A stretch of DNA of 64,000 nt, taken from NCBI GenBank assembly GCA_016214555.1, contig JACROF010000012.1, forward strand, positions 70,066 to 134,065, given 5' to 3'. This DNA comes from Candidatus Levyibacteriota bacterium (GTDB taxonomy: Bacteria; Patescibacteriota; Microgenomatia; Levybacterales; UBA12049). Every line of letters begins with the position of its first letter. Position 1 is the first letter of the stretch. This document shows, piece by piece, positions 15,265 to 39,877 of the stretch. Below the pieces are notes generated by a model. That model saw nothing but the letters and a program-made list of their open reading frames with translations, had not been told where the DNA came from and made no database searches. The position numbers were made by a program, and so were the translations under genes.

Positions 15265-15315
15265 GATTGTCAGCTTGATTACTTCGTGTTATAGTATCAA
15301 TCTATTGTTTTGTAC

Positions 15316-18166: not shown

Positions 18167-18168
18167 AG

Positions 18169-18540
18169 TTATAAAATAAGCTGAATTGTCTTAAAGACAA
18201 AGATTGTAGTAAGGGTTGACATAAGGAGCGATGACAGGTTAAGCATTCGACCAAGCATCGCAGATCGTTCATAGATAACATGAGTCAATACAATATTTGT
18301 TATTAGATAAATAAAGCTGAATCCTACTGGAATAAGAATTCCAATTTTTGTTACCAATCTTTCTGTTCCCCATGGGAGCTGGTTGAAGATTGGTATAACA
18401 GGAGGAAGGAGTGAGTAGGTAAAGACAATAAACAAGATACTAAGAAATAAAAAAACCGTAGACAGAATTATAGACCACCAAATAGCTTTGTCTAATGAAA
18501 GTTTTTTAATGTAAGTTTTCATAAATATCAGCATTTCCAA
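18169..18540 (-). CDS. small polytopic membrane protein, unknown function
   Basis: 123 aa, 3 predicted TM helices, within the glycosyltransferase cluster. No recognisable motif. Confidence 0.4.
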   Translation of the reverse strand: MEMLIFMKTYIKKLSLDKAIWWSIILSTVFLFLSILFIVFTYSLLPPVIPIFNQLPWGTERLVTKIGILIPVGFSFIYLITNIVLTHVIYERSAMLGRMLNLSSLLMSTLTTIFVFKTIQLIL

Positions 18541-21477: not shown

Positions 21478-21481
21478 ATTG

Positions 21482-22288
21482 TTAGGAAAGTTTATTAAAT
21501 ATAGTATAGACGTTTTGGGTTGTTTGTTCCACAATGCGATCATAAGAAACTTCTTTAACCCCGCTTAGGAATTTTCCTATTAAAATTACATATTCAGGGA
21601 GATTTCTTTCTCCTCTATGGGGAATAGGGGTTAAGTAGGGGCTGTCTGTCTCGACTACTATCCGGTCAAGAGGGGTAAGTTTTGCCAATTCTTTCAGTTC
21701 AACTGTTTCTTTTGGAGCTAACCCTGGATAAGTGATATTTCCGTCAAAACCTATAAAAAAACCAAGATTTAGTGCTTCTTTAAGCACTTCTTTTGTACCT
21801 GCGAAACAATGAAACATTCCTGGTACGGTTTGTAAAAGATGTTTTTTTTCTTTTAGTATCATTAGTATGTCCTCTCCTGCTAGACGATTATGAATTTGAA
21901 GAGGGAGTTTGAGCTTGTGTGCTAGCTCAATTTGAGTAATAAAAACTTCCTTTTGTATTTTTGGATCAACTATCCCGTTTGATTTATAGCTAAAATAATC
22001 AAGTCCTATTTCTCCAATGCCTATTACTTTACTTTGCTTTGCAATCATTTCAAGGTCATCAATCCAGTTATTGCCGAGTTCAATTTTATCGGCATGGTGA
22101 GGATGAATGCCAACAATTGCAAAAAGTTCAGAGTATTGTTTTGCAAGATCAACGGCCAGCTTACTTGAGTCGAGCTTTGTTCCTGTGTTGATAATTCTTG
22201 TTACGCCTTTTTCTAATGCACTTTTAATGACAGCGTCATAATCAGACGAAAAAGAATGAAAATTTAGATGACAGTGAACATCGATCAT
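21482..22288 (-). CDS. tatD: TatD-family metal-dependent deoxyribonuclease
   Basis: 268 aa. MIDVHCHLNF N-terminus and conserved His/Glu/Asp positions of the TatD TIM-barrel hydrolase. Confidence 0.85.
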   Translation of the reverse strand: MIDVHCHLNFHSFSSDYDAVIKSALEKGVTRIINTGTKLDSSKLAVDLAKQYSELFAIVGIHPHHADKIELGNNWIDDLEMIAKQSKVIGIGEIGLDYFSYKSNGIVDPKIQKEVFITQIELAHKLKLPLQIHNRLAGEDILMILKEKKHLLQTVPGMFHCFAGTKEVLKEALNLGFFIGFDGNITYPGLAPKETVELKELAKLTPLDRIVVETDSPYLTPIPHRGERNLPEYVILIGKFLSGVKEVSYDRIVEQTTQNVYTIFNKLS

Positions 22289-23756: not shown

Positions 23757-24143
23757 CTATACGGACTTACTGGTGAAAAATAGTTCAAGAGTTAAGAGAA
23801 TGCCAACAAGAAGAATAATAAAGAGTGGATGAGTAAGGTGGAGTACACGAAACAAAAGATAGCAAAGAAGAAAAAGAGCAAAAAATATGCCATGCTTTTT
23901 GCTCTTTAGAAAATATGTTGGAAGAGAATAGCCAGCGATAAGAAGTGGAAGAGGCACTATCCAAAGTGCAGGAATTGAAAAAAAGAAAAAAGTAATCTTG
24001 TCATAAGGCGAGATGGTTATCAGAAAGAAAATGAGCAGGAGAAGAAAGATAATTCCAACAATGAGGTAAAAAATATTTCTTTTTCTCCTTCTCATAGTTG
24101 AAGCATAGAGCTTTTTTCTTACCCACGCAACGCCTCTTGACAA
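23757..24143 (-). CDS. small membrane protein, unknown function
   Basis: 128 aa, 3-4 hydrophobic helices, divergent from hrcA. No motif. Confidence 0.4.
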   Translation of the reverse strand: MSRGVAWVRKKLYASTMRRRKRNIFYLIVGIIFLLLLIFFLITISPYDKITFFFFSIPALWIVPLPLLIAGYSLPTYFLKSKKHGIFFALFLLCYLLFRVLHLTHPLFIILLVGILLTLELFFTSKSV

Positions 24144-24165
24144 AAAATAGCACTCTTGGTATTAT
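24136..24165 (+). promoter_or_regulatory. sigma70-type promoter of hrcA operon (TTGACA -18- TATTAT)
   Basis: ttgaca at 24136-24141 and tattat at 24160-24165. The -10 lies inside the CIRCE spacer, the classic arrangement for HrcA-repressed promoters. Confidence 0.45.
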
Positions 24166-24173
24166 AGTGCTAA
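24147..24173. promoter_or_regulatory. CIRCE inverted-repeat operator (HrcA binding site)
   Basis: aTAGCACTC-ttggtatta-TAGTGCTAA versus consensus TTAGCACTC-N9-GAGTGCTAA: 9-bp arms, 9-nt spacer, one mismatch per arm. Located 10 nt upstream of hrcA. Confidence 0.65.
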
Positions 24174-24182
24174 TTCAAGATT

Positions 24183-24917
24183 ATGCATAACTTGACTCAG
24201 AGACAGATTGAGATTCTCAAAGCAATTATTGAGGATTATATCGAGACAGCAGAGCCAGTTGGTTCTGAGACCCTTGAAAAGAAATACAGCCTAAGTGCTT
24301 CTCCTGCAACGATTCGAAACGAGATGGTTAGACTTTCTGAATTTGGATATCTCAAAAAACCGCATTCGTCAGCAGGACGTGTCCCAACGCCTGAAGGAAT
24401 GAAGTTTTATGTCTCACAGCTCATGAGAGAGAAAGTGCTTTCGACAGTTGAGGAGGTAGCTCTAAAGGAGAAGGTTTGGGACTATCGCGAGAGAATGCAG
24501 CGTTTCCTTAAGGAAGCAACACGATCTCTTGCTGACAAAACAGGTGCTTTAGCTGTGGCAACTTCCCAAGATGGCGATGTCTTTATTTCGGGATATTCAA
24601 ATATTTTGGAGATGCCTGAATTTTTTGACATTGACATTACGAAGACTCTTCTTTCAGCTATTGATGAGTCAGAATATTTATTTAACCTTTGTCAGAAAAT
24701 GACCCAGGAAGGTGATGAGATCAATATACTGATGGGAGAGGATTTAGGTTCACGACTTCAGGGCCCTTATAGTTTTGTTTATACTCATTATGAGACTCCT
24801 ATGCATGGCGCAGGAGAGATTGGAGTAATTGGGCCGGTTCGCTTGAATTATACAGTCGTTGTGCCTACAGTGAGGTATTTTGGAGATCTTATTGAATCAA
24901 TTGCAAAAGGTTGGTAA
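24183..24917 (+). CDS. hrcA: heat-inducible transcription repressor HrcA (short form)
   Basis: 244 aa. N-terminal winged-helix with ILKAIIEDYIETAEPVGSETL...SPATIRNEM, typical of HrcA. CIRCE element upstream. Confidence 0.85.
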   Translation: MHNLTQRQIEILKAIIEDYIETAEPVGSETLEKKYSLSASPATIRNEMVRLSEFGYLKKPHSSAGRVPTPEGMKFYVSQLMREKVLSTVEEVALKEKVWDYRERMQRFLKEATRSLADKTGALAVATSQDGDVFISGYSNILEMPEFFDIDITKTLLSAIDESEYLFNLCQKMTQEGDEINILMGEDLGSRLQGPYSFVYTHYETPMHGAGEIGVIGPVRLNYTVVVPTVRYFGDLIESIAKGW

Positions 24918-24922
24918 AAATT

Positions 24923-25402
24923 ATGTCAGATGGAAAAAGAAATAAGAAACAAGAACAGACAGTTGTAGACAAGTCAGAAGAAGTTGAAGTGATTGAAGGT
25001 CATGCCTTAGAGTGGGAGAATAAGTACAAAAGAGTGCTTGCTGACTATCAGAACCTTGAAAAAAGAGTACGAGATGAAAGATTGGAATTAGTACGATCTT
25101 CAAATAAGGAATTGCTCTTGAAATTTTTGCCTATTTTAGATACAGTATTATTAGCAAAGCAGCACGAGCAAAATCAAAATCTTACAATTATTGAGGATCA
25201 GTTCTTTAGTATTCTCAAACTGGAAGGAGTGATAAAAATTGCTACGGTCGGAGAGCATTTCGACCCCTCAACAATGGAAGTTGTTACATTAACGCAGGGA
25301 CAAGAAGGAATTGTTATACAGGAGGTACGCCCAGGCTATCTGCTATATGATAAATTGCTGCGTCCAGCACAAGTTATAGTAGGCAACGAGGACAAAAAAT
25401 AA
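24923..25402 (+). CDS. grpE: nucleotide exchange factor GrpE
   Basis: Coiled-coil N-terminal region then a C-terminal beta domain. Sits between hrcA and dnaK. ATG at 24923 preferred over the TTG at 24911. Confidence 0.85.
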   Translation: MSDGKRNKKQEQTVVDKSEEVEVIEGHALEWENKYKRVLADYQNLEKRVRDERLELVRSSNKELLLKFLPILDTVLLAKQHEQNQNLTIIEDQFFSILKLEGVIKIATVGEHFDPSTMEVVTLTQGQEGIVIQEVRPGYLLYDKLLRPAQVIVGNEDKK

Positions 25403-25484
25403 AAGTTTAAAGTGTAAAGATAAAAATTAAGATGTATGTTTTTAACTTTTCATTTTTAACTTTTTCTGAGATAGAAAGGAATAT

Positions 25485-27386
25485 ATGGGAAAAATAATTG
25501 GAATTGATTTAGGTACAACAAATTCATGCGTAGCGGTTATGGAAGGTGGCTCACCAAAGGTGATCCATTCTGCGGAAGGCCGCAATGTCATCCCTTCTGT
25601 TGTTGATCCCAAAGCACATGTTGTTGGTGATATCGCAAAGCGTCAAATGGTTTTGAAGCCAAAAGAAACAATTTTTTCTGTCAAGAGATTGATGGGAAAG
25701 AAGTTCAAAGACTCCTCTGTTGCAAATGATATGAAATGGCTTCCATATGCCGTAAAAGCCGGAAGAGATGATATGGCTGTTGTTGAAGTCGATGGTAAAT
25801 CTTATACTCCGCAGGAGATTTCAGCAATGATTTTACAGAAAATAAAATCAGATGCAGAAGCATACCTTGGAGATAAGGTAACTGAGGCAGTTATTACTGT
25901 ACCTGCTTATTTTGACGATAGTCAGCGCCAGGCTACAAAGCAGGCAGGAGAGATTGCTGGTCTTGAGGTAAAACGCATTATCAACGAGCCAACAGCAGCA
26001 GCGCTCGCATATGGATTAGATAAGAAAAATGCACATACTATTGCGGTCTACGATCTAGGTGGAGGAACATTTGATATTTCTATTTTGGAGCTTGGGGATG
26101 GTGTCTATGAGGTAAAATCAACTAATGGAGACACTCATCTTGGAGGAGATGATTTTGATCAGGTAATTATTACTTATTTGGCCGAGGAATTCAAAAAAGA
26201 AAATGCTATCGATTTGAAAAAAGACCCCCAGGCACTTCAGAGATTGAAGGAATCAGCCGAAAAAGCAAAAATAGAACTTTCATCTGCTCAGGAGGCGCAG
26301 ATCAATCAGCCATTTATCACTCAAGGACCAAATGGCCCTCTTCATTTGACGATGACTCTTACAAGAGCAAAGCTTGAGCAGCTCGTCGATGATCTTGTTC
26401 AAAAGACGCTTAAACCCGTTGAGCAGGCAATTAAAGATGCGGGTATAAAAAAGAATGAAGTTGACGAGGTTGTTATGGTTGGTGGAATGACTCGCATGCC
26501 GAAAATTGTCGAAACAGTCTCAAAATTCTTTGAAAAAGAACCAAATAAATCAGTAAATCCTGATGAAGTAGTAGCAATTGGTGCTGCTGTACAGGGAGGC
26601 GTTCTTTCAGGAGATGTTAAGGATGTGCTCCTTCTTGATGTAACTCCTTTGACGCTTGGCATTGAGACAATGGGCTCAGTTTCAACCCCTCTTATAGCAA
26701 GAAATACCACCATTCCTACATCAAAATCTCAAGTATTTTCAACCGCTGCAGATAATCAGACACAGGTAGAGATTAACGTTTTGCAAGGAGAGCGACCTAT
26801 GGCCGCAGACAATAAGTCACTTGGTCGATTTATTCTGGATGGTATTCCTCCAGCTCCTCGTGGTATGCCACAAGTTGAGGTAACATTTGATATTGATGCA
26901 AATGGCATTTTGAATGTCAAAGCTAAAGATAAAGCTACTGGAAAAGAGCAAAGTATTAAGATTACCGGTTCAACTGGGCTTTCAAAAGAGGAAGTTGAGA
27001 GAATGACTAAAGAGGCTGAGCTTCATGCTAAAGAGGATGAAGAGAAGAAAGCGCAGGTTGAAACAAGAAATCAGGCAGACTCTCTTATTTTTACCGCCGA
27101 AAAATCTCTCAAGGATGCAGGGGATAAAGTAAGCGATGATATTAAAAAAGAAGTAGAAGAAAAGATAAAAGCACTTAAAGACATCTTGGATAGTGGATCA
27201 AAGGAGGAACTTGAGACAAAGACTAAAGAGCTTTCAGATCATCTTCAAAAAATTGGTGAAGCTATGTATAAGGATCAAGTTGCATCCACTGAAGCAAATT
27301 CACCAGTGGCAAGCTCAGAGGAGAAGAAAGATGCAAAGGATAGTAATGAGCCTGTTGAAGGTGAGGTAGTCGATGGCCGAAACTAA
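25485..27386 (+). CDS. dnaK: molecular chaperone DnaK (Hsp70)
   Basis: 633 aa. [22 protein letters not shown] and VGGMTRMP Hsp70 signatures. Acidic C-terminal tail. Confidence 0.95.
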
Positions 27387-27810
27387 ACCAGAATTTGTCC
27401 AAGCTCCCTTTCGTATTGTTGAACCTCCCTCAATTGAGGATCCACTCCCTACTGCTGTTCCACCATCTGCTGATATTTTAGCGGGTAGGGTTTTTAGTTC
27501 AGAAGATCAGGCACGATTGACAGAGTTAGAAGAAAAAGTTGAAAGATTATCAAATCAAGGTCAGCCAACAATTGATATTCAGAACGAGATTGCTAGAATA
27601 CGTGGTATAGAGATGCCTTCCATAAAAAGAAAAGAGGGGCCGTTTTTAGAGGATATTATGTCCAGAGAACAAATCGAAGAAAATTTGAGAAATAACCTTC
27701 CTGCTAGTTTTAGCCCACCCCATATAAGAACTGGTCAAGAGGCTAGAGGAGATAGGAGTCCGACATGGAGAGGTCCAAGGCAAAGAGCTGTTTCAAAAAG
27801 AACAAAGTAA
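27373..27810 (+). CDS. hypothetical protein encoded between dnaK and dnaJ (likely disordered, Pro/Arg/Glu-rich)
   Basis: 145 aa ORF filling a 440-nt dnaK-dnaJ gap and overlapping the dnaK stop by 14 nt. No recognisable domain. Compositionally biased. Confidence 0.4.
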
Positions 27811-27826
27811 TATTGCATGAATTACT

Positions 27827-28705
27827 ATGGCACAAGATTATTATTCATTATTAGGAGTTTCTAAATCTTCAAGTGCAGATGAGATTAAAAAAGCCTATCG
27901 TAAATTAGCGCTTCAGTACCACCCCGATCGTAATAAGACTAAAGAGGGGGAGGAAAAATTTAAGGAAATAACCAAAGCCTACGAAGTCCTTTCAGACCCG
28001 CAAAAAAGACAGACCTACGATCAGTACGGATCAGCAGCTTTTGAACAGGGAGGGCCAGGGGCAGGAGGCCCGTTTGGTGGAGGTTTTGGTGGATTTAATC
28101 AGCAAGGTCCTTTTAGTTATACATATTCCAGCAATGGTCAAGGATTTGATTTTGGGGGATTCTCAGATCCATTTGAAATATTTGAACAATTTTTTGGTGG
28201 TGCATCGCCTTTTGGAAGAGGAGAAAGAAGGCAGGTTTATTCTTTGTCGATTAGCTTTATGGAGGCTGTGAAGGGCGCTGAGAAAGAAGTAGAGATAGAC
28301 AAGAAAAAACAAAAAATAAAGATTCCTCCAGGTGTTGATACGGGAACAAGAATGAGGTTTGAAGGTTTTGATATTGTATTTGAAGTAAAGCAAGATAAAA
28401 GATTTCATCGTGAAGGCTCAGATATTATCACTGAGGAAACAATATCTTTTCCTCAAGCAGTTCTTGGTAGCGAGATAAAGGTTGAAACAGTTGAAGGAGA
28501 GGTTACCATCAAGATTCCAGCGGGAACACAGCCTGAGACATTGATACGACTTCGAGAAAAAGGAATCCAAAGACTCCGAAGTTCAAGCAAGGGTGATCAT
28601 TATGTGCGAATTAAGATAGATATCCCTAAAAACATTTCAAAAAAGCAGAGAGAAATTCTTGAGGCTTTTGATTCGGATTCGCAAAATAAAAAGAACTGGT
28701 TTTAG
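27827..28705 (+). CDS. dnaJ: DnaJ-like co-chaperone, type II (J domain + G/F-rich region + C-terminal substrate-binding domains, no zinc finger)
   Basis: 292 aa. J domain with HPD ([13 protein letters not shown]). Gly/Phe-rich linker. No CxxCxGxG repeats. C-terminal DnaJ_C-like region. Confidence 0.8.
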
Positions 28706-28796
28706 CGCATTTTCTGCACAAAGATTTATTTGTAATTTCTATACCAAATTCGTATACTTGAAATACGTGGCGCCTTAGAATTGGTGCTTTATTTCT

Positions 28797-29180
28797 ATGA
28801 AAATTGTCTCTGCTCGACAATGGATTCAAAAATTATCTTATTCGTTATTTTTTGTGGATGTTGCGTATGCTGCCGATCCAGCTTCCTCTTGTGATTCTTC
28901 AGCTGTTATGACACAGCTTGGGTGTCTACCGAAAGATCCTGTACTCTTTGTTAGTAGTTTTTATGGTATTGGACTGAGTATGGTTGGTGGAGTAGCTCTT
29001 CTCTTTATCATTATTGGAGGTTACACAATTCTTACTTCTCGAGGGAATCCAAGTCAAATTAACGCAGGAAAAAGTTATATTTTTTACTCGATTGCTGGCC
29101 TTATTCTTGCAATATTTGGCTATCTCTTTATAGAGATATTTTTGGTTGATCTTCTTCATATACCTGGTCTTGGACACTAA
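28797..29180 (+). CDS. small secreted two-TM protein, VirB2/TrbC pilin-like (hypothesis)
   Basis: 127 aa. Signal peptide ending AYA-ADP. Mature ~100 aa with two hydrophobic helices separated by a short polar loop (TSRGNPSQINAGKS). Size and topology resemble TrbC/VirB2 T-pilin subunits. Stop is 2 nt before the next gene. Confidence 0.5.
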   Translation: MKIVSARQWIQKLSYSLFFVDVAYAADPASSCDSSAVMTQLGCLPKDPVLFVSSFYGIGLSMVGGVALLFIIIGGYTILTSRGNPSQINAGKSYIFYSIAGLILAIFGYLFIEIFLVDLLHIPGLGH

Positions 29181-29181
29181 A

Positions 29182-32100
29182 ATGAAAAAATATTTTTTGT
29201 TCTGCCTTCTTTTTATCGTAGGACTTTTTTTATTTACCACCTCTCAGCAAGCGTATGCTGTTTCGATAGATAGCAAAACTCTTATTGCGGCAGATGCATT
29301 ACCCCAGGATGGATCGTGGATTATTGATCCTGAGGTGACTAGAATCGGCAAAAACGCATCACGATCAGGGCAGTTATTGGATTGGACACTCAAGGATTAC
29401 CAATGGTCAACTGCAGCATCGCAGCAAAGTAGCGATAATCCTCTTGCATCATTTTGGATCATTATTCAGAGAATTGTTTATGCCTTGTTTTTAGTTGTAA
29501 TTCTTATAACGTCATTTATTCTCATTGTAACTAGAGGGAAAAGTCTGTCTGCTAAAAGATTTCTTCCGAGGTTTTTACTCGCAGTAATTCTTGTGACTTT
29601 TTCTTTTTCACTTATTCAATTTATTTATCAATTTGTTGATATTTTACAAGGATTTTTTCTTAACAATTCTCGTGGGCAAATTATTTCATCAAAAGATCTT
29701 TTATTTATAGGCTTTCAGTACACAGACTTTGAAGGACTTCGTCGATTCGGTTCGTCATTTGACGAGTCTGCATTTATGTCGTTGATCCTTGTTAAATTTA
29801 CTGCATTTACTTATTATGTTATGGCTCTTCTCCTTATTTTTAGAAAGATTCTTCTTTGGTTTTTTATAGTTCTCTCTCCCCTTTTCCCAATACTGCTCTT
29901 GTTCTATCCAATGAGGAATACGGGAAAGGTTTGGATCGGTGAGTTTTTTAGATGGGTACTTTACGCACCTCTTTTTGCTATTTTCTTATCGGGCCTTGTA
30001 AGATTGTGGGATTCTCCTTCAGGACTTCCTCTCCTTTTTAATTTTACTGGAGTAAAGCAGGGGGATATGGTATATCCGACTGCGGTAAATATTTTACTTG
30101 GTGGACCTGGGCAAAAAATCGGATTGAACAATAGCGTTAATCTTCCTGATACATTTGCACTTTATGTAGTGTCTCTTATCATGTTGTGGGCAGTTATTAT
30201 TCTGCCATTTATTCTTCTCCAGATTTTTTTAGATCACATGATGGCGTATAATTATCAAAATAATCCTATAACAAAACAAATTACTAATCTTATGGCTTCA
30301 AGGCTTGCGCCGCCCTCAAAGCCACTTGGTCCTCCTCCATCTTCTAATCAACCAGCAGGTCTTGCAAGAAATATTCCCTTTGGTAGGCATTTTGAGGTTC
30401 CATCGTCTGTTGGTGATGCTAAGGAGATTCCAAGAAGTTTTGCACAGCAAAATAAGTCTCAGACAGTAGTGAAGAAAAATGTTGTTACAAAATCCGTAGT
30501 GAATAATCTAGCCAATCTTTCAATTCCAACGATGAGGGATATTGCCAGATATGAAATAGAGAAAAGATCTCATGACACTTCTCGAATTGCAGAAATTGAA
30601 AGAACGAAAAAAACTCTTATTCAGATAGCAAGTCCGACAACTCTTTCTATTTCTAGTGAGCGAGAAAGATATCAGGCTATCAGGGAAAGGTTAAGACTTG
30701 CTTCTCAGAAAGGTGATACTGTTGCCACAAATATACTCCAGGCTGCAAATACATATAATTACTATTCTTCGCAAGACACTTCTTCGACCACGATTAATCA
30801 AGGAGTTAAAAATCTTGCTAATCCAGAGAGAATCCTTTCTACAGTGGAAAAAGAAAAAGTCGAAAAAATAAAAGAGAGAATTATTCAGAATGCTCTTGAG
30901 GGTAACCCTATTGCTAAACAAGTTGCTGCAGGCCTAAGTCAGTTCTCCTCAAGCCAACTTGCAGTTCTCAAACAAATACTTCAGGCATTATCGTCATCAG
31001 CTCTAAATCAGAACTCTTCTAATCAATATGAGTCGCTTCGCGAGCGTCTCGTAACCGCAAGCAATTCTGGGAATACAGTTGCAACTACGTTTATTTCTAC
31101 AATTGAAAAGTCATCTTCTGAGCAAGATGTTAAGAGTTTATTTGAGGCGTTAATTAAAGCTGAAAAAGAAGGAAATCCAATAGCAAAAGAGGTTATGAGC
31201 TCTGTTGATAAAAATGTCTCACAGGTATCCACAGAGAATTTAAAGCAGGTGATTAAAGAAGCTAAAGATAAAAAAGATCCATTAGGGGTAATGATTTTTG
31301 AGATGATGCAAGAATCATCAGTCAAAGAACAAAAAGTTCCCGCCTCAGCGGCAACGAAATTAAAAAGCGGCACTTTTCCTGTTGTTAATAGGATTCAAGA
31401 AGTATCTTTTGATGATTACGAAGCTGTGAAGAAAATGTGGAGGGAAAATTATAAAAATTTGAAGTCTGCTGGATTTAATGGTGATAGTAGAAGAGATGAG
31501 ATCAATAATGATATTTCACATATGCAAGAAACGATTAGCTTACTTTCTTCAGGGAATCAAGAGATGATCGAACAAGGAATGAGACAGGTATCTGATATTC
31601 TGCCATTTCTATTAATTGGAGGATTCTCTCAGACTGAAATTATTACCTATCTTAAGGCAAAATTGGAGGCTGCAAAGTCTACACTTGAAGACTTAACAGC
31701 GAAAGACGATGAAGAAGACACGCTTCTTGCTGCTGAAAAAGCTGTTAAGCACACCTCAAAAACTATGACGATGAGTGCTGAGGCGCCTATTTCTGCAAAG
31801 CAGGTTATTCCTCAAGAGGTTTCAACGGGGTCTGTGCATACGACTCTACTGTCTCCTCCTTTGGCTAGTGGGGCAACATCAATTTTTAATATAGTCAACC
31901 TCCCAATAGTTACCTTGCGAGATATTGTAAGAATTGACCAGAAAAGAGAGACAACAACAGACCAGAAGAGTGAAATCACTATTCTTAAGCAAAATCTTCT
32001 CAATATTGGACATCCTGAGAGGGTAACTTCAGTAGACGAGCGTGAAAAATATAAAACATTGCACACTCAGCTGGTTGAGGAGGATAAGAAAGGAAATCCT

Positions 32101-33150
32101 TCAGCAAAGATTATTATCAATGCAATTAGTGAGCTTGACAACCAAACGTCTGATAGCGAAATTGATAACGCAAATAAGTTTATTTCACTTCTTGGGCAGC
32201 AAATGATTCCAGGTGATAAAAATGAGGATAGGGAAAATGAGATTTCACAATTGATTTTGAGAGAAAGTGCTTCAAATCCTCTAGCTGAATCTCTTCGTGT
32301 GGCTTCACAGCAGTGGTATAACCTTCAGAAAGAAAAAACTAAAGATTTTCTTGAGAAAATTAGCAATCCTTCTCTCCTACCAACAGCCGCTGAGCAGATG
32401 CAGTATACGAAGCTAATGGATAGGATTTCTTTGGCAAGCTCAAACGGAAACAGCGTTGCATCATATGTAGTTAAAGCAATCCGTGAAAAAGATATAGATC
32501 ACGAAATACCTCAAATATATGTAAAAATTGCTGAAGGAGAAAGGAATGGAGATGAGCTTTCAACATATCTCATGAGAACTATCTATAACACAGCCTCACA
32601 TGATACTAAGATAGACGCTGAGTCTATTTTCCAAAAGACAGTATCACAGGGGAGAGATGGCGATCTCTTTGCTTCAAAACTCTTAAAAGAGATTGCAAAA
32701 ATCGCCAAACAATTAGGTAAAAAGACAACGCCTGTCACCTCTTTGCCTCATGCAAATCGAATACAGACTGTTACTCTTGATGATTATGAAGAGGTAAAAA
32801 GAATGTGGGAGGAGAATTATGCATCATTTCTTCTAGATTCTTCAAAATCTTCTGATGAGAAAAAGAGAATAATAGAAAAGGATGTTAATTCATTAACTCT
32901 AGCCATAAACTTGCTTTCATCAACTGATTCTGAGCAGATGAGAAGAGGAATGGATATGGTAAGCGATTTGTTGCCTTTTCTTCTCTTGGGAGGATTTAGT
33001 CAGCCTGAAATTATCGGGTATCTAAAGGCAAAACGTACTGCTGCAGAGTCTGTTTTTAAAAGTGAAAATAGCTTGAATGAGGAATTGGTTAGTAGAAATA
33101 AAAGACAGGAAAATCCAATACAACAGAAAGTTCAAGTCGTCGATGAATGA
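29182..33150 (+). CDS. giant (1322 aa) secreted polytopic membrane protein: N-terminal VirB6/TrbL-like multi-TM domain plus long modular repeat-containing hydrophilic C-terminal region
   Basis: ATG at 29182 (the track's 29146 is TTG). Signal peptide MKKYFLFCLLFIVGLFLFTTSQQAYA, then ~6 TM helices within the first ~370 aa. About 950 aa of hydrophilic sequence follow, with several repeated module types (see repeat features). Confidence 0.8.
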   Translation: MKKYFLFCLLFIVGLFLFTTSQQAYAVSIDSKTLIAADALPQDGSWIIDPEVTRIGKNASRSGQLLDWTLKDYQWSTAASQQSSDNPLASFWIIIQRIVYALFLVVILITSFILIVTRGKSLSAKRFLPRFLLAVILVTFSFSLIQFIYQFVDILQGFFLNNSRGQIISSKDLLFIGFQYTDFEGLRRFGSSFDESAFMSLILVKFTAFTYYVMALLLIFRKILLWFFIVLSPLFPILLLFYPMRNTGKVWIGEFFRWVLYAPLFAIFLSGLVRLWDSPSGLPLLFNFTGVKQGDMVYPTAVNILLGGPGQKIGLNNSVNLPDTFALYVVSLIMLWAVIILPFILLQIFLDHMMAYNYQNNPITKQITNLMASRLAPPSKPLGPPPSSNQPAGLARNIPFGRHFEVPSSVGDAKEIPRSFAQQNKSQTVVKKNVVTKSVVNNLANLSIPTMRDIARYEIEKRSHDTSRIAEIERTKKTLIQIASPTTLSISSERERYQAIRERLRLASQKGDTVATNILQAANTYNYYSSQDTSSTTINQGVKNLANPERILSTVEKEKVEKIKERIIQNALEGNPIAKQVAAGLSQFSSSQLAVLKQILQALSSSALNQNSSNQYESLRERLVTASNSGNTVATTFISTIEKSSSEQDVKSLFEALIKAEKEGNPIAKEVMSSVDKNVSQVSTENLKQVIKEAKDKKDPLGVMIFEMMQESSVKEQKVPASAATKLKSGTFPVVNRIQEVSFDDYEAVKKMWRENYKNLKSAGFNGDSRRDEINNDISHMQETISLLSSGNQEMIEQGMRQVSDILPFLLIGGFSQTEIITYLKAKLEAAKSTLEDLTAKDDEEDTLLAAEKAVKHTSKTMTMSAEAPISAKQVIPQEVSTGSVHTTLLSPPLASGATSIFNIVNLPIVTLRDIVRIDQKRETTTDQKSEITILKQNLLNIGHPERVTSVDEREKYKTLHTQLVEEDKKGNPSAKIIINAISELDNQTSDSEIDNANKFISLLGQQMIPGDKNEDRENEISQLILRESASNPLAESLRVASQQWYNLQKEKTKDFLEKISNPSLLPTAAEQMQYTKLMDRISLASSNGNSVASYVVKAIREKDIDHEIPQIYVKIAEGERNGDELSTYLMRTIYNTASHDTKIDAESIFQKTVSQGRDGDLFASKLLKEIAKIAKQLGKKTTPVTSLPHANRIQTVTLDDYEEVKRMWEENYASFLLDSSKSSDEKKRIIEKDVNSLTLAINLLSSTDSEQMRRGMDMVSDLLPFLLLGGFSQPEIIGYLKAKRTAAESVFKSENSLNEELVSRNKRQENPIQQKVQVVDE
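31381..31695 (+). repeat. intragenic ~105-aa repeat module copy A (RIQEVSFDDYEAVKKMW...LPFLLIGGFSQTEIITYLKAKLEAAKS)
   Basis: Protein-level duplication within the 1322-aa ORF. Copy A is ~40-45% identical to copy B, including DDYE.VK.MW.ENY, LPFLL.GGFSQ.EII.YLKAK and AA.S. Nucleotide level is diverged. Confidence 0.6.
32745..33070 (+). repeat. intragenic ~105-aa repeat module copy B (RIQTVTLDDYEEVKRMW...LPFLLLGGFSQPEIIGYLKAKRTAAES)
   Basis: Paralogous to copy A at 31381-31695. Conserved hydrophobic patch LPFLLxGGFSQ and basic YLKAK motif. Confidence 0.6.
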
Positions 33151-33193
33151 TAAAATACTTGCTCTTTTTTGAAGTATTGTATTAAATAAAAGT

Positions 33194-35866
33194 ATGCTTG
33201 GAAATTTATTTAGTTCTCATAAAGATCCTAAAGAGGAGTTGGTCTCGCCTCAAGAGCAAAATCCAGCAGATACAAGTACTGCTGCTAATACATTGACACA
33301 CATAGAGTCACGAATGGATCCAACGCTTAGGCAAAATGTCTCAGCGCTATCCCATCTTGATTCTCGTACTACGCAAGTTCTTCATCACGCTCAAGAAGAG
33401 ACAAGGCGCATTAAGCAAGCTCAAATACAGCCTGAACAAGTATTGCTAGGACTACTATACGATGAGGAAGTTTTTAAGCTACTTGAAGGTTTTGATGTTG
33501 ATGTTGCAAAGCTTGCCCAGGAAATTCAGAGTAAAGAAGAAGTAGGAAGTTTCCAAGAGCAGCCGATGTTGAGTAGCGCAAGTACTCAGCTATTTGAGCA
33601 GGCATATAGAGACGCAAAAACCAGAAACGCCAGCTTTGTTTCACCAGAGGATCTTTTGGTTGAGATTTGCAATTTATCTATTGATTCCGTAAAGCTCCTA
33701 GTGGAAAAGGGAGTTACTAAACAACATATTTTGGACAAATTATCGTCGTCTACAGAATACACCACGGGTAAAAAATCAGTTCTTGAACAATTCGCCATAG
33801 ATCTCACTGCTGAAGCAAAAGCAGGGAAATTGGATCCAATCGCAGGAAGAGATAGGGAAATTGACAGACTTGTTCACATTTTACTTCGAAGGACAAAAAA
33901 CAACCCAATAATTATTGGTGAAGCTGGAGTCGGTAAAACAGCGATTGTTGAAGGACTTGCACAGGAAATTGTTGCAGGAAGTATACCATCTGACCTTAAA
34001 AACAAAAAAATTTATCAGCTTGATCTTGCATCGCTTGTAGCTGGCGCTAGCCATAGAGGAGAGTTTGAGGAGCGACTAAAAGGGATAATCAATGAAACAA
34101 TTGCGTCACAAGGTCAAATAATCCTTTTTATTGATGAAATACATACCCTCATTGGGGCAGGTGACACTGACGGCGCTTTGGATGCTTCAAACATAATAAA
34201 GCCCCATTTAGCAAGAGGTCATATGCAGATTATTGGAACAACTACCACAGTTGAGTATAGAAAGCATTTTGAGAAAGATAAGGCTTTCGAGCGACGTTTT
34301 CAACCAATCCTTGCTGATGAACCATCTGAAGAGGCTGCTGTTGAAATGCTGAAAGTGTTAAGGCCAAAATATGAGAAATATCATGGTGTGACAATCCCTG
34401 ATGATACTTTGGTAGATGCCGTTAAGTTATCAAAAAAATATATTGGAGAAAGATATCTTCCTGATAAAGCAGTTGATCTTATCGATGAAGCTTCAGCAGA
34501 TGTAAAGCTTGGACGAATTTCTTTTAAGCAGGATGTAAAGGAATCGGGAGAAAACTCAAATGACACACCGCCTCGTTCACAGGCAACAACGGGTAATGAG
34601 GTGGTAAAGTCAGATATTGAGAGAGTTGTGAGCAATTGGACTGGTATTCCAGTTACAAAATTGACTGAAGACGAGAGTCAGAAGCTTCTTAAGCTTGAGG
34701 ATAATATTCATAAAAGACTTATCGACCAGCAAGAAGCAGTCGTTGCGGTATCTGAGGCTGTACGGAGAGGGAGAATTGGGTTAGCTCCGGCAAATAGGCC
34801 AATTGCATCATTTATATTTCTCGGTCCAACAGGCGTTGGCAAAACAGAATTAGCAAAAACGCTTGCCGAGTTACTTTTTGGGCGTGATGATGCTCTTGTG
34901 AGGCTTGATATGAGTGAATATATGGAAAAGCATGAGGTAGCTAAGTTGATTGGGGCTCCTCCAGGATACGTTGGTTATGAAGAAGGAGGTCAGTTGACAG
35001 AGGCGGTTCGGGCAAAGCCATACTCAATAGTTCTACTTGATGAGGTAGAAAAAGCACATCCTGATGTTTTTAATATTCTTTTACAGCTTTTGGAAGATGG
35101 TCGATTAACAGACAATAAAGGTAATACTATTTCGTTCAAAAATACTATTGTTATAGCTACCTCCAATATTGGAAGTTCGCTTATTCAGCAACAGCTTAGT
35201 GAAAAAGGAGAGCCACAATCGCAGGAAGCTTTTACTAAAGAGTTTAGTGATTTGACAACGCTTGTAACAGCAGAGTTAAGAAAGTTTTTTAAGCCAGAAC
35301 TTCTTAACCGATTTGATGACGTGGTGATGTTTAAGCCTTTGAGAAAAGCAGATATGACGCAGATTGCAAAGCTTGGTATCGGAAAAACAGCAAAATTGCT
35401 TGAAGAGCAGGGGTATCATGTTCAGACAACGGATGCTGCGATTGCGCAGCTTGCGCAGGAAGGATACGATCCTGTATATGGAGCAAGGCCGCTTAGAAGG
35501 CTTATCCAGTCATCTATCGAAAATCGAGTAGCTCTTATGATCATAGGGAAGGAATTTATGCCTGGAGATACTATTGTGATTGATTATAACTCGACAAAAG
35601 GAGGTTTTAATTTCTCAAAAGGCGGTGGTCAGAGTGTAGTTGGTCCAGAAAAAAACATCGATAATCGAGACAATAATACTCAACCTCTTGATATGGTTGA
35701 AAAATCTCATCTTCCTGAGTCAGGAACAGGGGAAGCTCAGGCGTTACCTAAGGAGCCTGAGTACGCGCAGCCCAGCTTCAATCCTCCATTCTTGAGTAAT
35801 CAAAATAACAACGTCAATGGTGAGACTTTTGTAAAGAACGAAATCACTTCTGCCTCAAGCAATTAA
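33194..35866 (+). CDS. Hsp100/Clp-family double-AAA+ ATPase (ClpC/ClpA-like architecture, no ClpB M-domain, no recognisable ClpP-docking IGF/IGL loop), Q/N-rich C-terminal tail
   Basis: 890 aa. Two Clp_N repeats. NBD1 Walker A GEAGVGKT and Walker B ILFIDEIH. Only ~45 aa between NBD1 and NBD2. NBD2 Walker A GPTGVGKT, Walker [11 protein letters not shown], sensor ATSNIG and GARPLRR. No G-F/G-L tripeptide after the sensor-1 region. Confidence 0.85.
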
Positions 35867-35937
35867 TAAATACCCTCTAAGGCTGTAAAAGATGCTGGTT
35901 TGAACTTTATTTTATATTCAAGGTATACTAAGTATGT

Positions 35938-36267
35938 ATGTCTGCCCTGTTTTTCTACCCATTTTACGTATTGAGATTTTGGTATGGTGAAGGTCCTGTT
36001 GTTGTACTCAAGCATTTCTATATTTTTAATCGTGTATTTCTTGATTTTTTTTCTGTAAAAATTCTTCTAAAAACCTTTTTTCTTCCTGTAAAAAATGAAT
36101 ATCGCGATGGTTTGGTCGGATTTTCCATTGGAATTGGGATTTTTATGAAAAGCTGTTTACTTATCATTGCAGCATTTTTATTTATGATACTTCTTGTTTT
36201 TGAAGTGGTGATTTTTGGAGGATATATGGCATTTCCTTTGATTACAGTAGGATTGTTGTTGTGGTAA
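35938..36267 (+). CDS. small polytopic membrane protein, unknown function
   Basis: 109 aa, 3 hydrophobic helices. Stop overlaps the start of the following membrane-anchored Clp-like gene, suggesting translational coupling. Confidence 0.4.
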   Translation: MSALFFYPFYVLRFWYGEGPVVVLKHFYIFNRVFLDFFSVKILLKTFFLPVKNEYRDGLVGFSIGIGIFMKSCLLIIAAFLFMILLVFEVVIFGGYMAFPLITVGLLLW

Positions 36268-36269
36268 TT

Positions 36270-38669
36270 ATGGATAGACAACTCGTATCAATATATTTGT
36301 TTTATAGAAGTATAGAAGTAAAATTTATAAGAGTTGCTCTTCCAGTGATTCTTCTGATGTGGATTCCCCTTGTGCTTATTACTAACGAATCCCCTAATGT
36401 TCCCATTGTTATTTTTAATCTTTATCTTATGGGAGAACTTTTTTATCGGTATAAGATTTGTACATTAAGAACAAAAAATACCCTTCTGGATCAGGAAGAT
36501 CCTTATAAGAGTATGTCTTTAGAGGTAGCTTCAGTATTTCAAAATGCTTCATCAACAAAGGAAATATTAAGACGCTTGTTTAGTCATCAACAGGTCATTT
36601 TTGGGTTACAAAGAATGGGTGCTTCTCCGCGAGATGTAGTGAGTATTGAATACGAAGCCAACGTGTTGCTGCTAAGAGCGTCTGAGCTCGCTAAAAAAAT
36701 ACAGGGAACAAAGATTACTCTTATAGATGTGCTCAATTCTTATCTGATTGTCTCAGATGAGAAGACAAATTTCCTTTTACATAAGCGATTAAAAGAGAAT
36801 GACTTGCTGCAGATTTCTGTCTGGGTTAGGAAGATCTATCAATTTGAGGAAAAACCAAGGGAGCTATTTTTTGCAAATTACGGAGGAGGATTGGGGCAAT
36901 GGCTTGTGTCTGGGTGGACCTTGGAAACTAAAAAGTATACACAAGTTTTTCCTCAGAAGGATCTTAATCTTGATGTTTCTATTATTGGCAGAGAAAAAGA
37001 ATATCAGTTATTACAAGAAAGCTTATTAAAACCTGAAAGAAATAATATTCTAATTGTTGGAAAAACAGGGGTAGGCAAAGAGCAGCTGCTTAGAAGGCTG
37101 GCAGAGGATAGTTTTAGTGGAAAACTTGATAAGAATCTTTCATATAAAACAATTCTTGAAGTACTCGTTGGATCACTTGTCGCTGGAGCAAATCAACAAG
37201 GCGATCTTCAGGAGCGTTTAAAAGAAATCATTGAGGAGGTTAGCCATGCAGGCAATGTTATTCTTTATATTCCTGAATTCCAGAACCTTCTTGGCGGGAC
37301 CAGCTTTTCACTTGATCTTTCTGGGGCATTAATGCCATTCCTTCGTGATGGAAAGCTTCCGATTATCGCAAGTGTCACTGACGAAAATTTTAAAAGATAT
37401 ATACAAGGTAAACCTATCTCTGAAATGTTTTCTGATATTCATCTTACGGCTCCCAGTAGTAATCAGGCTGAGCAGATGATAATGGAAAAGATCGTGGAGC
37501 TTGAAAGAAAACATGCAGTAATAATTACTTATCCTGCTGTCAAGACATCGGTGATGTTTGCACAAAAATATTCTGATAGTTCTGAGTTACCAGGAAGTGC
37601 AATTGATCTACTGTCTGATGCAATGAGTAAAAAAGCTTCTGAAGATATTCATGATGCACATAATAAGTTTCGTTTAGTTACTGAGAAAGATATTATTCAT
37701 ACAGTTGAACAGCGAACAAGTATTGCGTTGGATGATCCAACAGAAGAAGAGAGTTCAAGGCTACTTCATCTAGAATCTATTATGCATGAGCGGATCATAG
37801 GTCAAGATCAGGCTATTAAAGCTATTGCAGAATCTCTTCGAAGACTCAGAACAGGGGTTCAGAGTCTAGATAGACCTACCTCCTTTTTGTTCCTGGGCCC
37901 AACAGGTGTTGGTAAAACTGAAGTAGCAAAAGTATTATCAAATATTTATTTTAATGGTGAAGCGAATATGATCCGTCTTGACATGAGCGAGTATGCATCA
38001 ACCGATGGTATTGAGAGATTAATAGGAGCATCTACCAGACAAAACGATCTGAGAGGTGAGTTGACTGAGAAAATCCATGATCATCCAAATTCCCTTGTCC
38101 TTCTTGACGAATTTGAGAAAGCTCATTCGTCGGTGGCAAATCTCTTCCTTCAGATTCTTGATGATGGTAGATTGACCGATGGGAGAGGTAATACTGTTTC
38201 TTTCAGTAACGCGATTATTATCGCAACATCGAATGCTGGAGCAAATTTTATTCACGATGCGATAGAAAAAAATGTATTTCTTGATAGCTCGTTTCAGAAG
38301 CAATTGAGAAGCTTTCTTCAGGCAAATAATATATTCAAGCCAGAATTACTCAACCGCTTTGATGATATTGTTGTTTTTCGGCCACTCTTAAAGGATGATG
38401 TTAGGAAAGTAACAGAAATTTTGTTAAGAGATCTTATAAGTCACATGAAAGAAAAAGACATAACACTCTCCGTTGAGGATATTGCAGTGTCTAAAATAAT
38501 ATCAGAAGGTTATGATAAAGAATATGGAGCAAGACCAATTCGGAGATATATCCAAGACAATCTTGATGATCTTATTGCGAAAGAAATCCTTAATAAATCA
38601 ATTAATAGAGGAGATAGGGTAAGAATTGGCGTCAATCAAATAAATGAGTTTGTTATTTATCGAATTTAG
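36270..38669 (+). CDS. membrane-anchored Hsp100/Clp-like ATPase with degenerate (catalytically dead) first AAA+ domain and intact second AAA+ domain
   Basis: ATG at 36270 (GTG at 36261 in the track). Two N-terminal TM helices, then a Clp_N-like repeat pair. NBD1 Walker A reads VGKTGVGKEQL (canonical T/S replaced by E), Walker B reads ILYIPEF (D replaced by P), and the Arg finger is lost. NBD2 is canonical ([36 protein letters not shown]). Confidence 0.8.
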   Translation: MDRQLVSIYLFYRSIEVKFIRVALPVILLMWIPLVLITNESPNVPIVIFNLYLMGELFYRYKICTLRTKNTLLDQEDPYKSMSLEVASVFQNASSTKEILRRLFSHQQVIFGLQRMGASPRDVVSIEYEANVLLLRASELAKKIQGTKITLIDVLNSYLIVSDEKTNFLLHKRLKENDLLQISVWVRKIYQFEEKPRELFFANYGGGLGQWLVSGWTLETKKYTQVFPQKDLNLDVSIIGREKEYQLLQESLLKPERNNILIVGKTGVGKEQLLRRLAEDSFSGKLDKNLSYKTILEVLVGSLVAGANQQGDLQERLKEIIEEVSHAGNVILYIPEFQNLLGGTSFSLDLSGALMPFLRDGKLPIIASVTDENFKRYIQGKPISEMFSDIHLTAPSSNQAEQMIMEKIVELERKHAVIITYPAVKTSVMFAQKYSDSSELPGSAIDLLSDAMSKKASEDIHDAHNKFRLVTEKDIIHTVEQRTSIALDDPTEEESSRLLHLESIMHERIIGQDQAIKAIAESLRRLRTGVQSLDRPTSFLFLGPTGVGKTEVAKVLSNIYFNGEANMIRLDMSEYASTDGIERLIGASTRQNDLRGELTEKIHDHPNSLVLLDEFEKAHSSVANLFLQILDDGRLTDGRGNTVSFSNAIIIATSNAGANFIHDAIEKNVFLDSSFQKQLRSFLQANNIFKPELLNRFDDIVVFRPLLKDDVRKVTEILLRDLISHMKEKDITLSVEDIAVSKIISEGYDKEYGARPIRRYIQDNLDDLIAKEILNKSINRGDRVRIGVNQINEFVIYRI

Positions 38670-38722: not shown

Positions 38723-39877
38723 ATGAAAAAGAGAGCATACAAAAGGAAGCATGTTGTTTTAAAGACAAAACGACATAAAAAATTTCACCATAAAGTTATA
38801 TCTTTTTTTAGGGGAGATGGCGGAATTTATGTAATTTTTATTCTTGCTACCGCAATGGCTGGAGCATTTGCCTTAACAGGTGGTATTCTTCCTCAGCTTA
38901 ATCCTACTCCACCTGCATCAAGCCAAGTTGATATAGATACCGAGTCAGCAAAGCAAAGCAGCGAGAATGCTTTGCAGCTTGTTGACATAAAGCCAAAACC
39001 GACCGAGGTGCCTACGCCTACCAGTGAAATTACTCCCAGTACCTCGCCTAGTATCTCTCCTAGCATCTCGCAGCCTCCTCCTGTTCAGGAATGTTATAAC
39101 AAGACGTTAGTGACTTTGATACTTGATTATTCAAATTCAATGCTAACACCAAATTCAAGTCCAAAATATACTGCTTTAAATTCTGCGCTTGGATCTTTCT
39201 ATACACAATTGAGTGGTTATGCTAATGCTGGCATCGGAGCTCAAGCATTTACTGGAAAAGATTCTGGGAATACACCGCTAGATGGTGTATTTAACCTGTT
39301 GAATTACAAATTAGTAAAGAATGTTTCATCTTCAGATAAGCAAAAAATTACTCAAGTAGATAAAGCTGTTTTAGAAAATAGTAATGGTGGAGGAACCTAC
39401 ATGAGAAATGGGTTTTCCTATACTATTTCCAAATTAGAATCAGCTCCCTCTTCTTTTGCAGGATATAGAAAAGTTGCCATAATTTTTTCTGATGGTATTC
39501 CTGAGGAGACATGGGAAGATAGAGAATCCCACAACGGGGATGCAAATTCTTCTTCAGTTTGCTTAGGGAGTGGTAGATATCAGCAGAGATGTTTTTCAAT
39601 TTATCAAGACCCACGAGTAAATTCAACAAACAGATTACCTGATCTAGTAAAGGGACTAAAAGATATAACAGATAGTGTATACGTCGTTGGTATTTATGAT
39701 AGCAAAAGTGGTGAAGGGCTAGTTTTTAAAGATAATTTGATTAGCCTGTTACAGACGATTGCAGAGAGGAGCACGACCCCATTCTATCAATTTATAGACT
39801 TAAAAGATGATCCAGCGGCGGCATTGCAAAAATTAAATCCAGCTTTTCAAAATATTTTTAAAGACGTTTGTAAGTAA
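38723..39877 (+). CDS. membrane-anchored von Willebrand factor type A (vWA) domain protein with MIDAS motif
   Basis: 384 aa. Highly basic N-terminus (KKRAYKRKHVVLKTKRHKK), one TM helix, a P/S/T-rich linker, then a vWA domain with LILDYSNSM (DxSxS MIDAS) and later AIIFSDGIPEE. Confidence 0.7.
   Translation: MKKRAYKRKHVVLKTKRHKKFHHKVISFFRGDGGIYVIFILATAMAGAFALTGGILPQLNPTPPASSQVDIDTESAKQSSENALQLVDIKPKPTEVPTPTSEITPSTSPSISPSISQPPPVQECYNKTLVTLILDYSNSMLTPNSSPKYTALNSALGSFYTQLSGYANAGIGAQAFTGKDSGNTPLDGVFNLLNYKLVKNVSSSDKQKITQVDKAVLENSNGGGTYMRNGFSYTISKLESAPSSFAGYRKVAIIFSDGIPEETWEDRESHNGDANSSSVCLGSGRYQQRCFSIYQDPRVNSTNRLPDLVKGLKDITDSVYVVGIYDSKSGEGLVFKDNLISLLQTIAERSTTPFYQFIDLKDDPAAALQKLNPAFQNIFKDVCK

Follow-up and report, generated by a model that had tools for sequence, protein, structure and literature searches.

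A VirB6-like protein with a tandemly duplicated hydrophilic extension, encoded beside the heat-shock genes of Microgenomatia

The subject of this work is a gene found in a stretch of 64,000 nucleotides (nt) from an uncultured, ultra-small Candidatus Levyibacteriota bacterium (GenBank assembly GCA_016214555.1, contig JACROF010000012.1, positions 70,066 to 134,065 of the forward strand; the whole stretch is hereafter called the window), whose product of 1322 amino acids (aa) joins an N-terminal hydrophobic domain to a long C-terminal region made of one unit of about 456 aa, duplicated once in tandem. An extended VirB6 has been defined as a VirB6-like hydrophobic domain accompanied by at least one large hydrophilic domain, central or C-proximal (PMC12857230). 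By the published definition the product belongs to this subtype (PMC12857230, PMC7648143), because it combines a VirB6-like domain with about 960 hydrophilic residues that follow its last hydrophobic segment. The account that we favour, and consider somewhat more probable than the sum of the others, is that of an extended VirB6 of the Microgenomatia, in the Candidate Phyla Radiation (CPR), whose repeated tail serves as external modular binding arms. Our confidence is not the same for all of its parts, being high for identity and architecture, moderate for the location of the tail and low to moderate for the binding function.

The open reading frame (ORF) is identical over its full length to P0001, which corresponds to the NCBI protein HZC02_03695 of a metagenome-assembled genome of Candidatus Levybacteria, where it is annotated as a ‘hypothetical protein’. 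In a first-pass annotation of the window, made from the letters alone, it had been called a ‘giant ORF’ containing multiple repeat families; the long reading frame is there, and its size is large only in relative terms. Translation likely starts at the ATG at 29182 rather than at the TTG at 29146 given in the ORF list, since this ATG lies 1 nt past the stop codon (TAA) of the upstream gene, which encodes a protein of 127 aa. An AYA motif suggests the cleavage of a signal peptide. Each unit of the tail consists of a head motif, a series of short repeats of about 44 aa (s) and a module of about 120 aa (M), arranged as follows.

29182..33150, forward strand: gene of the extended VirB6-like protein, 1322 aa (ORF; 100% match to P0001)
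29182..29259, forward strand: signal peptide or first hydrophobic segment, MKKYFLFCLLFIVGLFLFTTSQQAYA (hydropathy)
29440..30249, forward strand: VirB6/TrbL-like hydrophobic helical domain, aa 87-356, with six hydrophobic segments (hydropathy)
30307..30360, forward strand: proline-rich linker APPSKPLGPPPSSNQPAG, joining the hydrophobic domain to the repeats (sequence)
30505..31686, forward strand: unit 1, aa 442-835, with head, four s repeats and M1 (BLASTP against unit 2)
30505..30549, forward strand: head motif of unit 1, NLANLSIPTMRDIAR, aa 442-456 (sequence)
30616-30747, 30808-30924, 30994-31104 and 31096-31200, forward strand: the four s repeats of unit 1 (iterated hidden Markov model, HMM)
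31360..31716, forward strand: M1, with LPFLLIGGFSQ at 31600-31632 (family HMM, 150 bits)
31741..31887, forward strand: inter-unit linker rich in S, T, P and A, aa 854-902 (sequence; outside the unit-to-unit alignment)
31888..33057, forward strand: unit 2, aa 903-1292, with head, s repeats (two significant, the rest degenerate) and M2 (BLASTP)
31888..31932, forward strand: head motif of unit 2, NIVNLPIVTLRDIVR, aa 903-917 (sequence)
31996-32127 and 32350-32481, forward strand: the two significant s repeats of unit 2 (iterated HMM)
32728..33096, forward strand: M2, with LPFLLLGGFSQ at 32971-33003 (family HMM, 136 bits)

That the N-terminal hydrophobic domain (aa ~87-356) has a VirB6/TrbL fold can be predicted with high confidence from its relatives and from structural modelling. 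Relatives sharing 50-73% identity with the protein in this domain match the Pfam family TrbL (PF04610) over profile positions ~4-190, with E values from 5e-7 to 1.5e-4, and two of them exceed the gathering score of the family (30.1 and 29.5 bits vs 25.9). Among members of the family with a single unit, TrbL was recovered at E <= 0.01 in 18 of 30 and no other family was recurrent. Furthermore, the AlphaFold model of one such single-unit homologue, P0126, was compared with the Protein Data Bank (PDB) by Foldseek, and the TrwI/VirB6 chains of R388 came first, with a probability of 0.97-1.0. The mean predicted local distance difference test (pLDDT) of this model is 67.5 and its predicted template modelling score (pTM) 0.48, with pLDDT values of 70-88 over most of the hydrophobic domain and below 50 in the counterpart of the proline-rich linker. 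The window protein also has the polytopic character of VirB6 proteins (about five or more hydrophobic helices), with its signal peptide and the six segments between aa 87 and 356. In the type IV secretion systems whose structures have been solved, the VirB6/TrbL fold forms a pentameric platform that recruits and polymerises the VirB2 pilin.

A gene for a VirB2-like pilin, the only type IV secretion partner seen in the window, is tightly coupled to the VirB6-like gene, as its stop codon is placed 1 nt before the ATG of the latter.

28797..29180, forward strand: VirB2-like pilin gene, 127 aa, two hydrophobic helices (Pfam T4SS_pilin PF18895)

The 127-aa protein matches PF18895 with E 2e-5 and 25.0 bits, just below the cut-off of 26.6, and the NCBIfam model NF045849 (ICE pilin-like) with E 0.0036; it contains two hydrophobic stretches separated by RGNPSQINAGKS. 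Its orthologue in a closed Levybacteria chromosome (L002) carries a weak PF18895 flag.

The C-terminal 900 aa are one unit of about 456 aa, duplicated once in tandem. The self-comparison of the whole protein by BLASTP returned the identity match alone, so that aa 431-880 were aligned against aa 881-1322. A single collinear alignment was obtained, pairing aa 442-835 with aa 903-1292 at 30% identity and 53% positives (composition-adjusted E 7e-39), and the significance of the similarity was evaluated by comparing Smith-Waterman scores with those of 300 shuffles, which gave z values of 43 for the units, 22 for the units deprived of the M modules and 45 for the M modules alone (M1 against M2 scored 259, the shuffles 29.8 +/- 5.1). 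It is the end-to-end alignment, together with the z value of 22 that remains without the M modules, that identifies a single duplicated unit. The three sets of motifs reported by the first-pass annotation all occur in the frame of the ORF where it had placed them: its two long modules (31381-31695 and 32745-33070) fall within M1 and M2 as delimited by the family HMM, its short repeats near 30661, 31027, 32041 and 32401 are four of the six significant copies of about 44 aa, and its N-L-x-I-x-T-x-RDI-x-R modules are the head motifs at aa 442-456 and 903-917. The repeats are therefore real, and the BLASTP alignment shows that they are not independent families, because head, s and M are collinear parts of the same unit. 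The self-alignment that could have refuted the earlier annotation revealed a similarity far beyond compositional bias.

At the DNA level, the sole notable direct repeat is a stretch of 80 nt with 70% identity and a spacing of 1368 nt, i.e. 456 codons, which bears out the earlier remark that the copies are diverged at the nucleotide level; copies so diverged point to an old duplication and not to an artefact of assembly. In fact, the first module of one species is closest to the first modules of the others, and the same holds for the last modules, a pairing which indicates that the duplication is older than the divergence of the species carrying it and that it has been maintained.

The head follows the pattern NLxNLxIxTxRDIxR and, according to a head HMM, its count equals that of M in 206 of the 226 proteins of the family, so that the repeating unit can be written as head, n x s, M. 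Only s truly repeats inside a unit. It is a helical repeat with the family consensus LQQIANPSSVTSTTEREKYEKLREKLVKESQKGNPLATSILSAA, whose six copies in the window protein were detected by the iterated HMM with E values between 6e-16 and 4e-6, while degenerate GNP-type copies lie in unit 2 between and after the two significant ones, as seen in the BLASTP alignment; across the family, a unit may hold anything between about 1 and 11 s repeats. The idea that s and M share an ancestor was considered and ruled out (hhalign probability 0.2%). An HMM scan of the window found no further gene bearing s or M, and no Pfam repeat family of the Armadillo/HEAT or Sel1 type was matched by s or M at E <= 10.

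M1 and M2 are 44% identical. In an alignment of 42 diverse modules, P85, G90, G91, E96, Y100 and K104 (numbering of M1) are invariant, and N13, Q16, Y23, W30, Y34, R47, W50 and the LPFLL-GGF block nearly so. The structure prediction of one module, suggested in the earlier annotation, yielded a confident, compact helical bundle (AlphaFold, pLDDT 87.9, pTM 0.76) with helices at model residues 20-35, 45-65, 70-83, 85-89 (LPFLL) and 94-128; the model blocks that span LPFLLxGGFSQ have pLDDT values of 93-98. This hydrophobic motif had been taken for a binding or insertion patch, an interpretation that the model does not favour: the motif is modelled as a short helix and an invariant GG turn that lead from helix 3 to helix 4, inside a compact bundle, and for this reason it is most likely a structural core or turn element of M rather than a binding site. 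The conserved polar residues N13, Q16, R47, E96, Y100 and K104 constitute a more plausible putative binding surface, as judged from their conservation.

Searches in Pfam, NCBIfam and PHROGs with the whole protein, both units, the N-terminal domain and the M consensus returned nothing credible. In particular, M has no Pfam match, nothing significant was found among PDB sequences with the M profile, the whole protein or the profile of the single-unit family, and a fold search with M recovered generic helical bundles and no specific relative. Some candidates were tried and discarded. The likeness of M to armadillo proteins is limited to designed ones, over 28 residues, with E 0.05-3.7 (M profile against PDB sequences); M as an HPt four-helix bundle with a phospho-accepting histidine failed as a candidate; Ferritin, DUF3708 and similar weak library matches were judged to be due to chance. 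When 1.84 billion representative proteins were searched exhaustively with HMMER, only 346 matched M, 324 of them at E <= 1e-10, and the N-terminal domain was present in all complete proteins among them. With so few matches, the complete ones all joined to the same N-terminal domain, M is a lineage-restricted and hitherto undescribed domain; s and head are likewise sequence families without earlier description, and all three could enter the domain databases.

The number of units varies considerably within the family. The 120 best full-length homologues (1100-2150 aa), nearly all of which are more than 50% identical in the N-terminal domain, all have M, in two copies (86 proteins), three (30), four (3) or one (1). 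A search with the N-terminal domain alone added about 30 proteins of 660-700 aa with the smallest architecture of the family, namely N-terminal domain, head, one s and one M. Among the complete ORFs of species-representative genomes, 50 have one M, 13 two and 8 three, and the two-unit form of the window protein is therefore a minority state; the maximum is five units, in one representative protein of 2790 aa. The M of single-unit proteins is 49% identical to first modules and 43% to last modules, and the mean identity is 56-57% among first modules and 43-44% among last modules. Since the M of single-unit proteins is nearer to the first modules than to the last, the added distal module is old and faster evolving.

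Two side observations concern the same collection of proteins and genomes. In P0205 (3266 aa), P0208 and P0221 some 900-1000 aa separate the M modules, and almost no s repeat can be recognised in these intervals; other sequence has taken the place of the stalk or interrupts it. Moreover, many of the assemblies (L003-L082) that contain this Microgenomatia-specific gene in a CPR-type neighbourhood are titled ‘uncultured Gammaproteobacteria bacterium’, and a few others Limnocylindrales, Acidiferrales or Saccharimonadales; these titles look like placeholders or wrong taxonomic labels.

The tail is probably extracytoplasmic, as suggested by the charges of the loops in the hydrophobic domain and by modelling. 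Throughout the family, hydrophobic segments 1 and 3 are each followed by a loop rich in K and R and free of acidic residues, and for this reason these loops are predicted to be cytoplasmic; with six spanning segments, this would place the C-terminus outside. In the VirB6 of R388, the membrane is spanned by alpha1 and alpha2 alone, and a periplasmic pentameric stalk is formed by the remaining hydrophobic helices (PMC9259494, PMC12857230). The model of P0126 contains an unbroken helix of 49 residues across segments 3 and 4, in agreement with a stalk of the R388 type, and this reading too would leave the C-terminus outside. An external tail is also supported by its linkers, proline-rich after the hydrophobic domain and rich in S, T and P between the units. 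Furthermore, the tails of the family contain 27 Cys in 125,721 residues (0.02%) vs 0.47% in the housekeeping proteins of the window, corresponding to a depletion of about 22-fold.

Several points speak against an extended VirB6 with an external tail. The window protein itself does not match Pfam TrbL even at E <= 10, and its assignment to VirB6 is based on relatives with 50-60% identity and on the model of a homologue, whose confidence is only moderate. VirB4, VirB3, VirB8 and a coupling protein were not found among most of the ORFs of at least 120 aa in the 64-kb window. The chaperones of the window are also poor in Cys, which makes the argument from this residue a weak one. Finally, the classical VirB6 of A. 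tumefaciens has a cytoplasmic C-terminus (PMC7648143).

In the mechanism that we propose, an oligomeric VirB6-like platform would recruit the pilin, and the tail would lie outside the cytoplasmic membrane, joined by the proline-rich linker to the distal end of the platform. The s repeats would act as extensible helical stalks, with M as a putative binding domain at the end of each stalk. As each unit adds an s stalk and an M module, the duplication of the unit would alter both reach and valency, with two M per chain and ten per pentamer, if the pentamer is conserved. Candidate ligands of M would be a component on the surface of a host or partner cell, the wall or surface layer (S-layer) of the bacterium itself, or the pilin.

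Other explanations of the tail have to be weighed. In the first, the tail is a passive spacer without a specific ligand that spans the wall or the S-layer, its length being set by the number of units, and M is a knot for folding or oligomerisation. Stalks tuned in length typically show such wide variation as is seen here in the number of units (1-5) and of s repeats within them, the only structures that M resembles are generic helical bundles, and the last module evolves faster than the first. However, M is far better conserved than the repeats around it, and its invariant polar residues E96, Y100 and K104 are spaced by four, as on one face of a helix, to which N13 and Q16 are to be added; a spacer would not need such residues, and the retention of one head and one M per unit in the great majority of the family is equally hard to reconcile with it. 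We regard a passive spacer as unlikely.

In the second, the tail is cytoplasmic and constitutes a docking platform for DnaK/DnaJ/ClpB, for a VirB4-type ATPase or for substrates, with each M as one dock. This explanation draws on the genomic neighbourhood, in which the order of genes is hrcA, grpE, dnaK, a 145-aa ORF, dnaJ, the pilin-like gene, the VirB6-like gene, clpB, a second clpB-like gene, a VWA-like gene, nusA and infB. The pilin/VirB6-like pair thus sits between hrcA-grpE-dnaK-dnaJ and clpB, all on one strand (window 24183-38669), and the order is the same in L001, L002 and most of 82 related loci, of which 70 have the pilin gene, 75 the N-terminal domain, 75 clpB and 59 dnaK. In some genomes dnaJ is found behind clpB, and the adjacency of pilin, VirB6-like gene and clpB is still intact. 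Ahead of hrcA, at 24137-24173, there is an operator of the CIRCE type (controlling inverted repeat of chaperone expression), ATAGCACTC-N9-TAGTGCTAA, with 2 mismatches (0 expected by chance), overlapped by a near-consensus promoter, TTGACA-17-TATTAT with TG, directly 5' of hrcA. The tail is also charged and all-helical, as in many cytoplasmic adaptors, and the precedent of A. tumefaciens VirB6 mentioned above points in the same direction. Against this, both topology readings, the six-span one based on the positive-inside loops and the R388-like one (PMC9259494), give an outside C-terminus, and the composition of the linkers and the depletion of Cys agree with them. Synteny inside one bacterial class may be an inherited order without functional coupling, and a weak terminator-like hairpin and a promoter-like site separate dnaJ from the pilin gene. 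On the whole, a cytoplasmic tail seems rather improbable, and the linkage to the heat-shock genes could be due to inherited gene order, co-regulation or functional coupling; a literature search on the heat-shock synteny of the gene pair found nothing relevant.

A bolder variant would see the pilin and the VirB6-like protein as a minimal pilus or secretion module without a VirB4 of its own, in which ClpB and/or DnaK would dock on M as motor or quality-control partner. We consider it highly improbable; if true, it would describe a relative of type IV secretion that is powered by chaperones and conserved across the Microgenomatia. As to the possibility that the repeats are an artefact, due to the compositional bias of a charged low-complexity region (which is indeed rich in S, E, K and L) or to a duplication introduced by assembly, practically nothing is left of it in view of the composition-adjusted BLASTP score, the shuffle z values of 22-45, the DNA copies at most 70% identical over 80 nt and the recurrence of the same architecture in hundreds of independent assemblies.

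The window protein can be compared with several known systems. TrwI/VirB6 of R388 (PDB 7o3v, 8rt9), belonging to PF04610, is a protein of about 340 aa without hydrophilic tail, to which the window protein adds about 900 aa of repeated units; the sequence identity between the two is only ~13%, the window shows no VirB5, VirB4 or other secretion gene, and the organism has a single membrane. A parallel in architecture is offered by the extended VirB6 proteins of the Rickettsiales, such as VirB6-3 and VirB6-4 of Anaplasma phagocytophilum, with hydrophilic C-terminal tandem repeats, variable in number among strains, and a surface-exposed tail (PMC7648143). There a TrbL/VirB6 domain, and here a VirB6-like one, carries a large, repeated, hydrophilic C-terminal extension, and the Rickettsiales have multiple VirB2 paralogues in the same organisms. 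However, no sequence kinship was found between the tails, and M and s match nothing outside this family of Microgenomatia; our repeats are ancient, with 30% identity, while theirs are recent and near-identical; and a monoderm free-living or epibiotic bacterium is compared with intracellular diderms.

A polytopic VirB6-like N-terminal part followed by a large hydrophilic domain is also found in TraG of the F plasmid and in the Gram-positive MPF-FA VirB6 homologues of 700-900 aa. The C-terminal domain of F TraG serves mating-pair stabilisation and entry exclusion and does so outside the cytoplasm, according to the passages that summarise it in PMC7648143 and PMC12857230. Library and PDB sequence searches found no match to these TraG/MPF-FA extended VirB6 proteins, whose genes belong to mobile conjugation clusters with VirB4 and a relaxase, whereas the present gene is located among chromosomal housekeeping and heat-shock genes. 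Within the same superphylum, the type IV secretion of Patescibacteria, known from Southlakia epibionticum and Nanosynbacter lyticus, likewise shows the unusual combination of VirB2-like pilins with a monoderm-type system, and S. epibionticum cannot grow as an epibiont without VirB6 and the pilin array (PMC12102498, PMC12857230). Those loci, unlike the one described here in a heat-shock cluster, adjoin virB4 and are often near dnaA.

These comparisons bear on a gap in the literature. A survey of Patescibacteria published in 2025 found VirB6 homologues to be ‘scarce’ in Microgenomatia, ‘suggesting extreme sequence divergence’ (PMC12102498). The family presented here was seen in most of the ~80 genomes sampled at species level and is a concrete candidate for the VirB6 that was missed; the missing component may lie elsewhere than at the virB4 locus. 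A review of the same year states that it is still unknown what the hydrophilic extensions do in extended VirB6 proteins (PMC12857230), and the present family, in which a well-folded module occurs on helical stalks in one to five copies, is suited to the study of this question. If the tail is external, M would be a candidate host-contact domain of ultra-small epibiotic bacteria. The place of the gene pair within the HrcA/CIRCE heat-shock cluster is strongly conserved.

Some further observations concern the genes around the pair. The 145-aa ORF (27373-27810, forward strand), which shares 14 nt with the end of dnaK, takes up the 440 nt that separate dnaK from dnaJ. Neither Pfam nor NCBIfam gives a match for it, and it may not be a real gene, since none is called at the corresponding place in L001. 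Downstream of the VirB6-like gene there are two ClpB-type genes in a row (33194-35866 and 36261-38669, both on the forward strand): the first product (890 aa) has Clp_N and both AAA modules, and the second (802 aa) is weaker and lacks a Clp_N match. They are followed by a weakly VWA-like protein of 384 aa (38723-39877, forward strand), and the trio is also present in L001. In the closed chromosome L002, an ORF of 1227 aa (14732-18415) comes after the VirB6-like gene, in the place of the clpB of the window; it has no recorded Pfam match, yet tblastn with the ClpB proteins of the window lands inside it. Elsewhere in the window, three ORFs are without Pfam match at the thresholds used (19984-21543, reverse strand, 519 aa; 42652-43734, forward strand, 360 aa; 11231-12106, forward strand, 291 aa), and the lysyl-tRNA synthetase at 13741-15264 (forward strand) is a class I enzyme, as shown by its match to Pfam tRNA-synt_1f (E 3e-93); class I is the less common form of this synthetase in bacteria.

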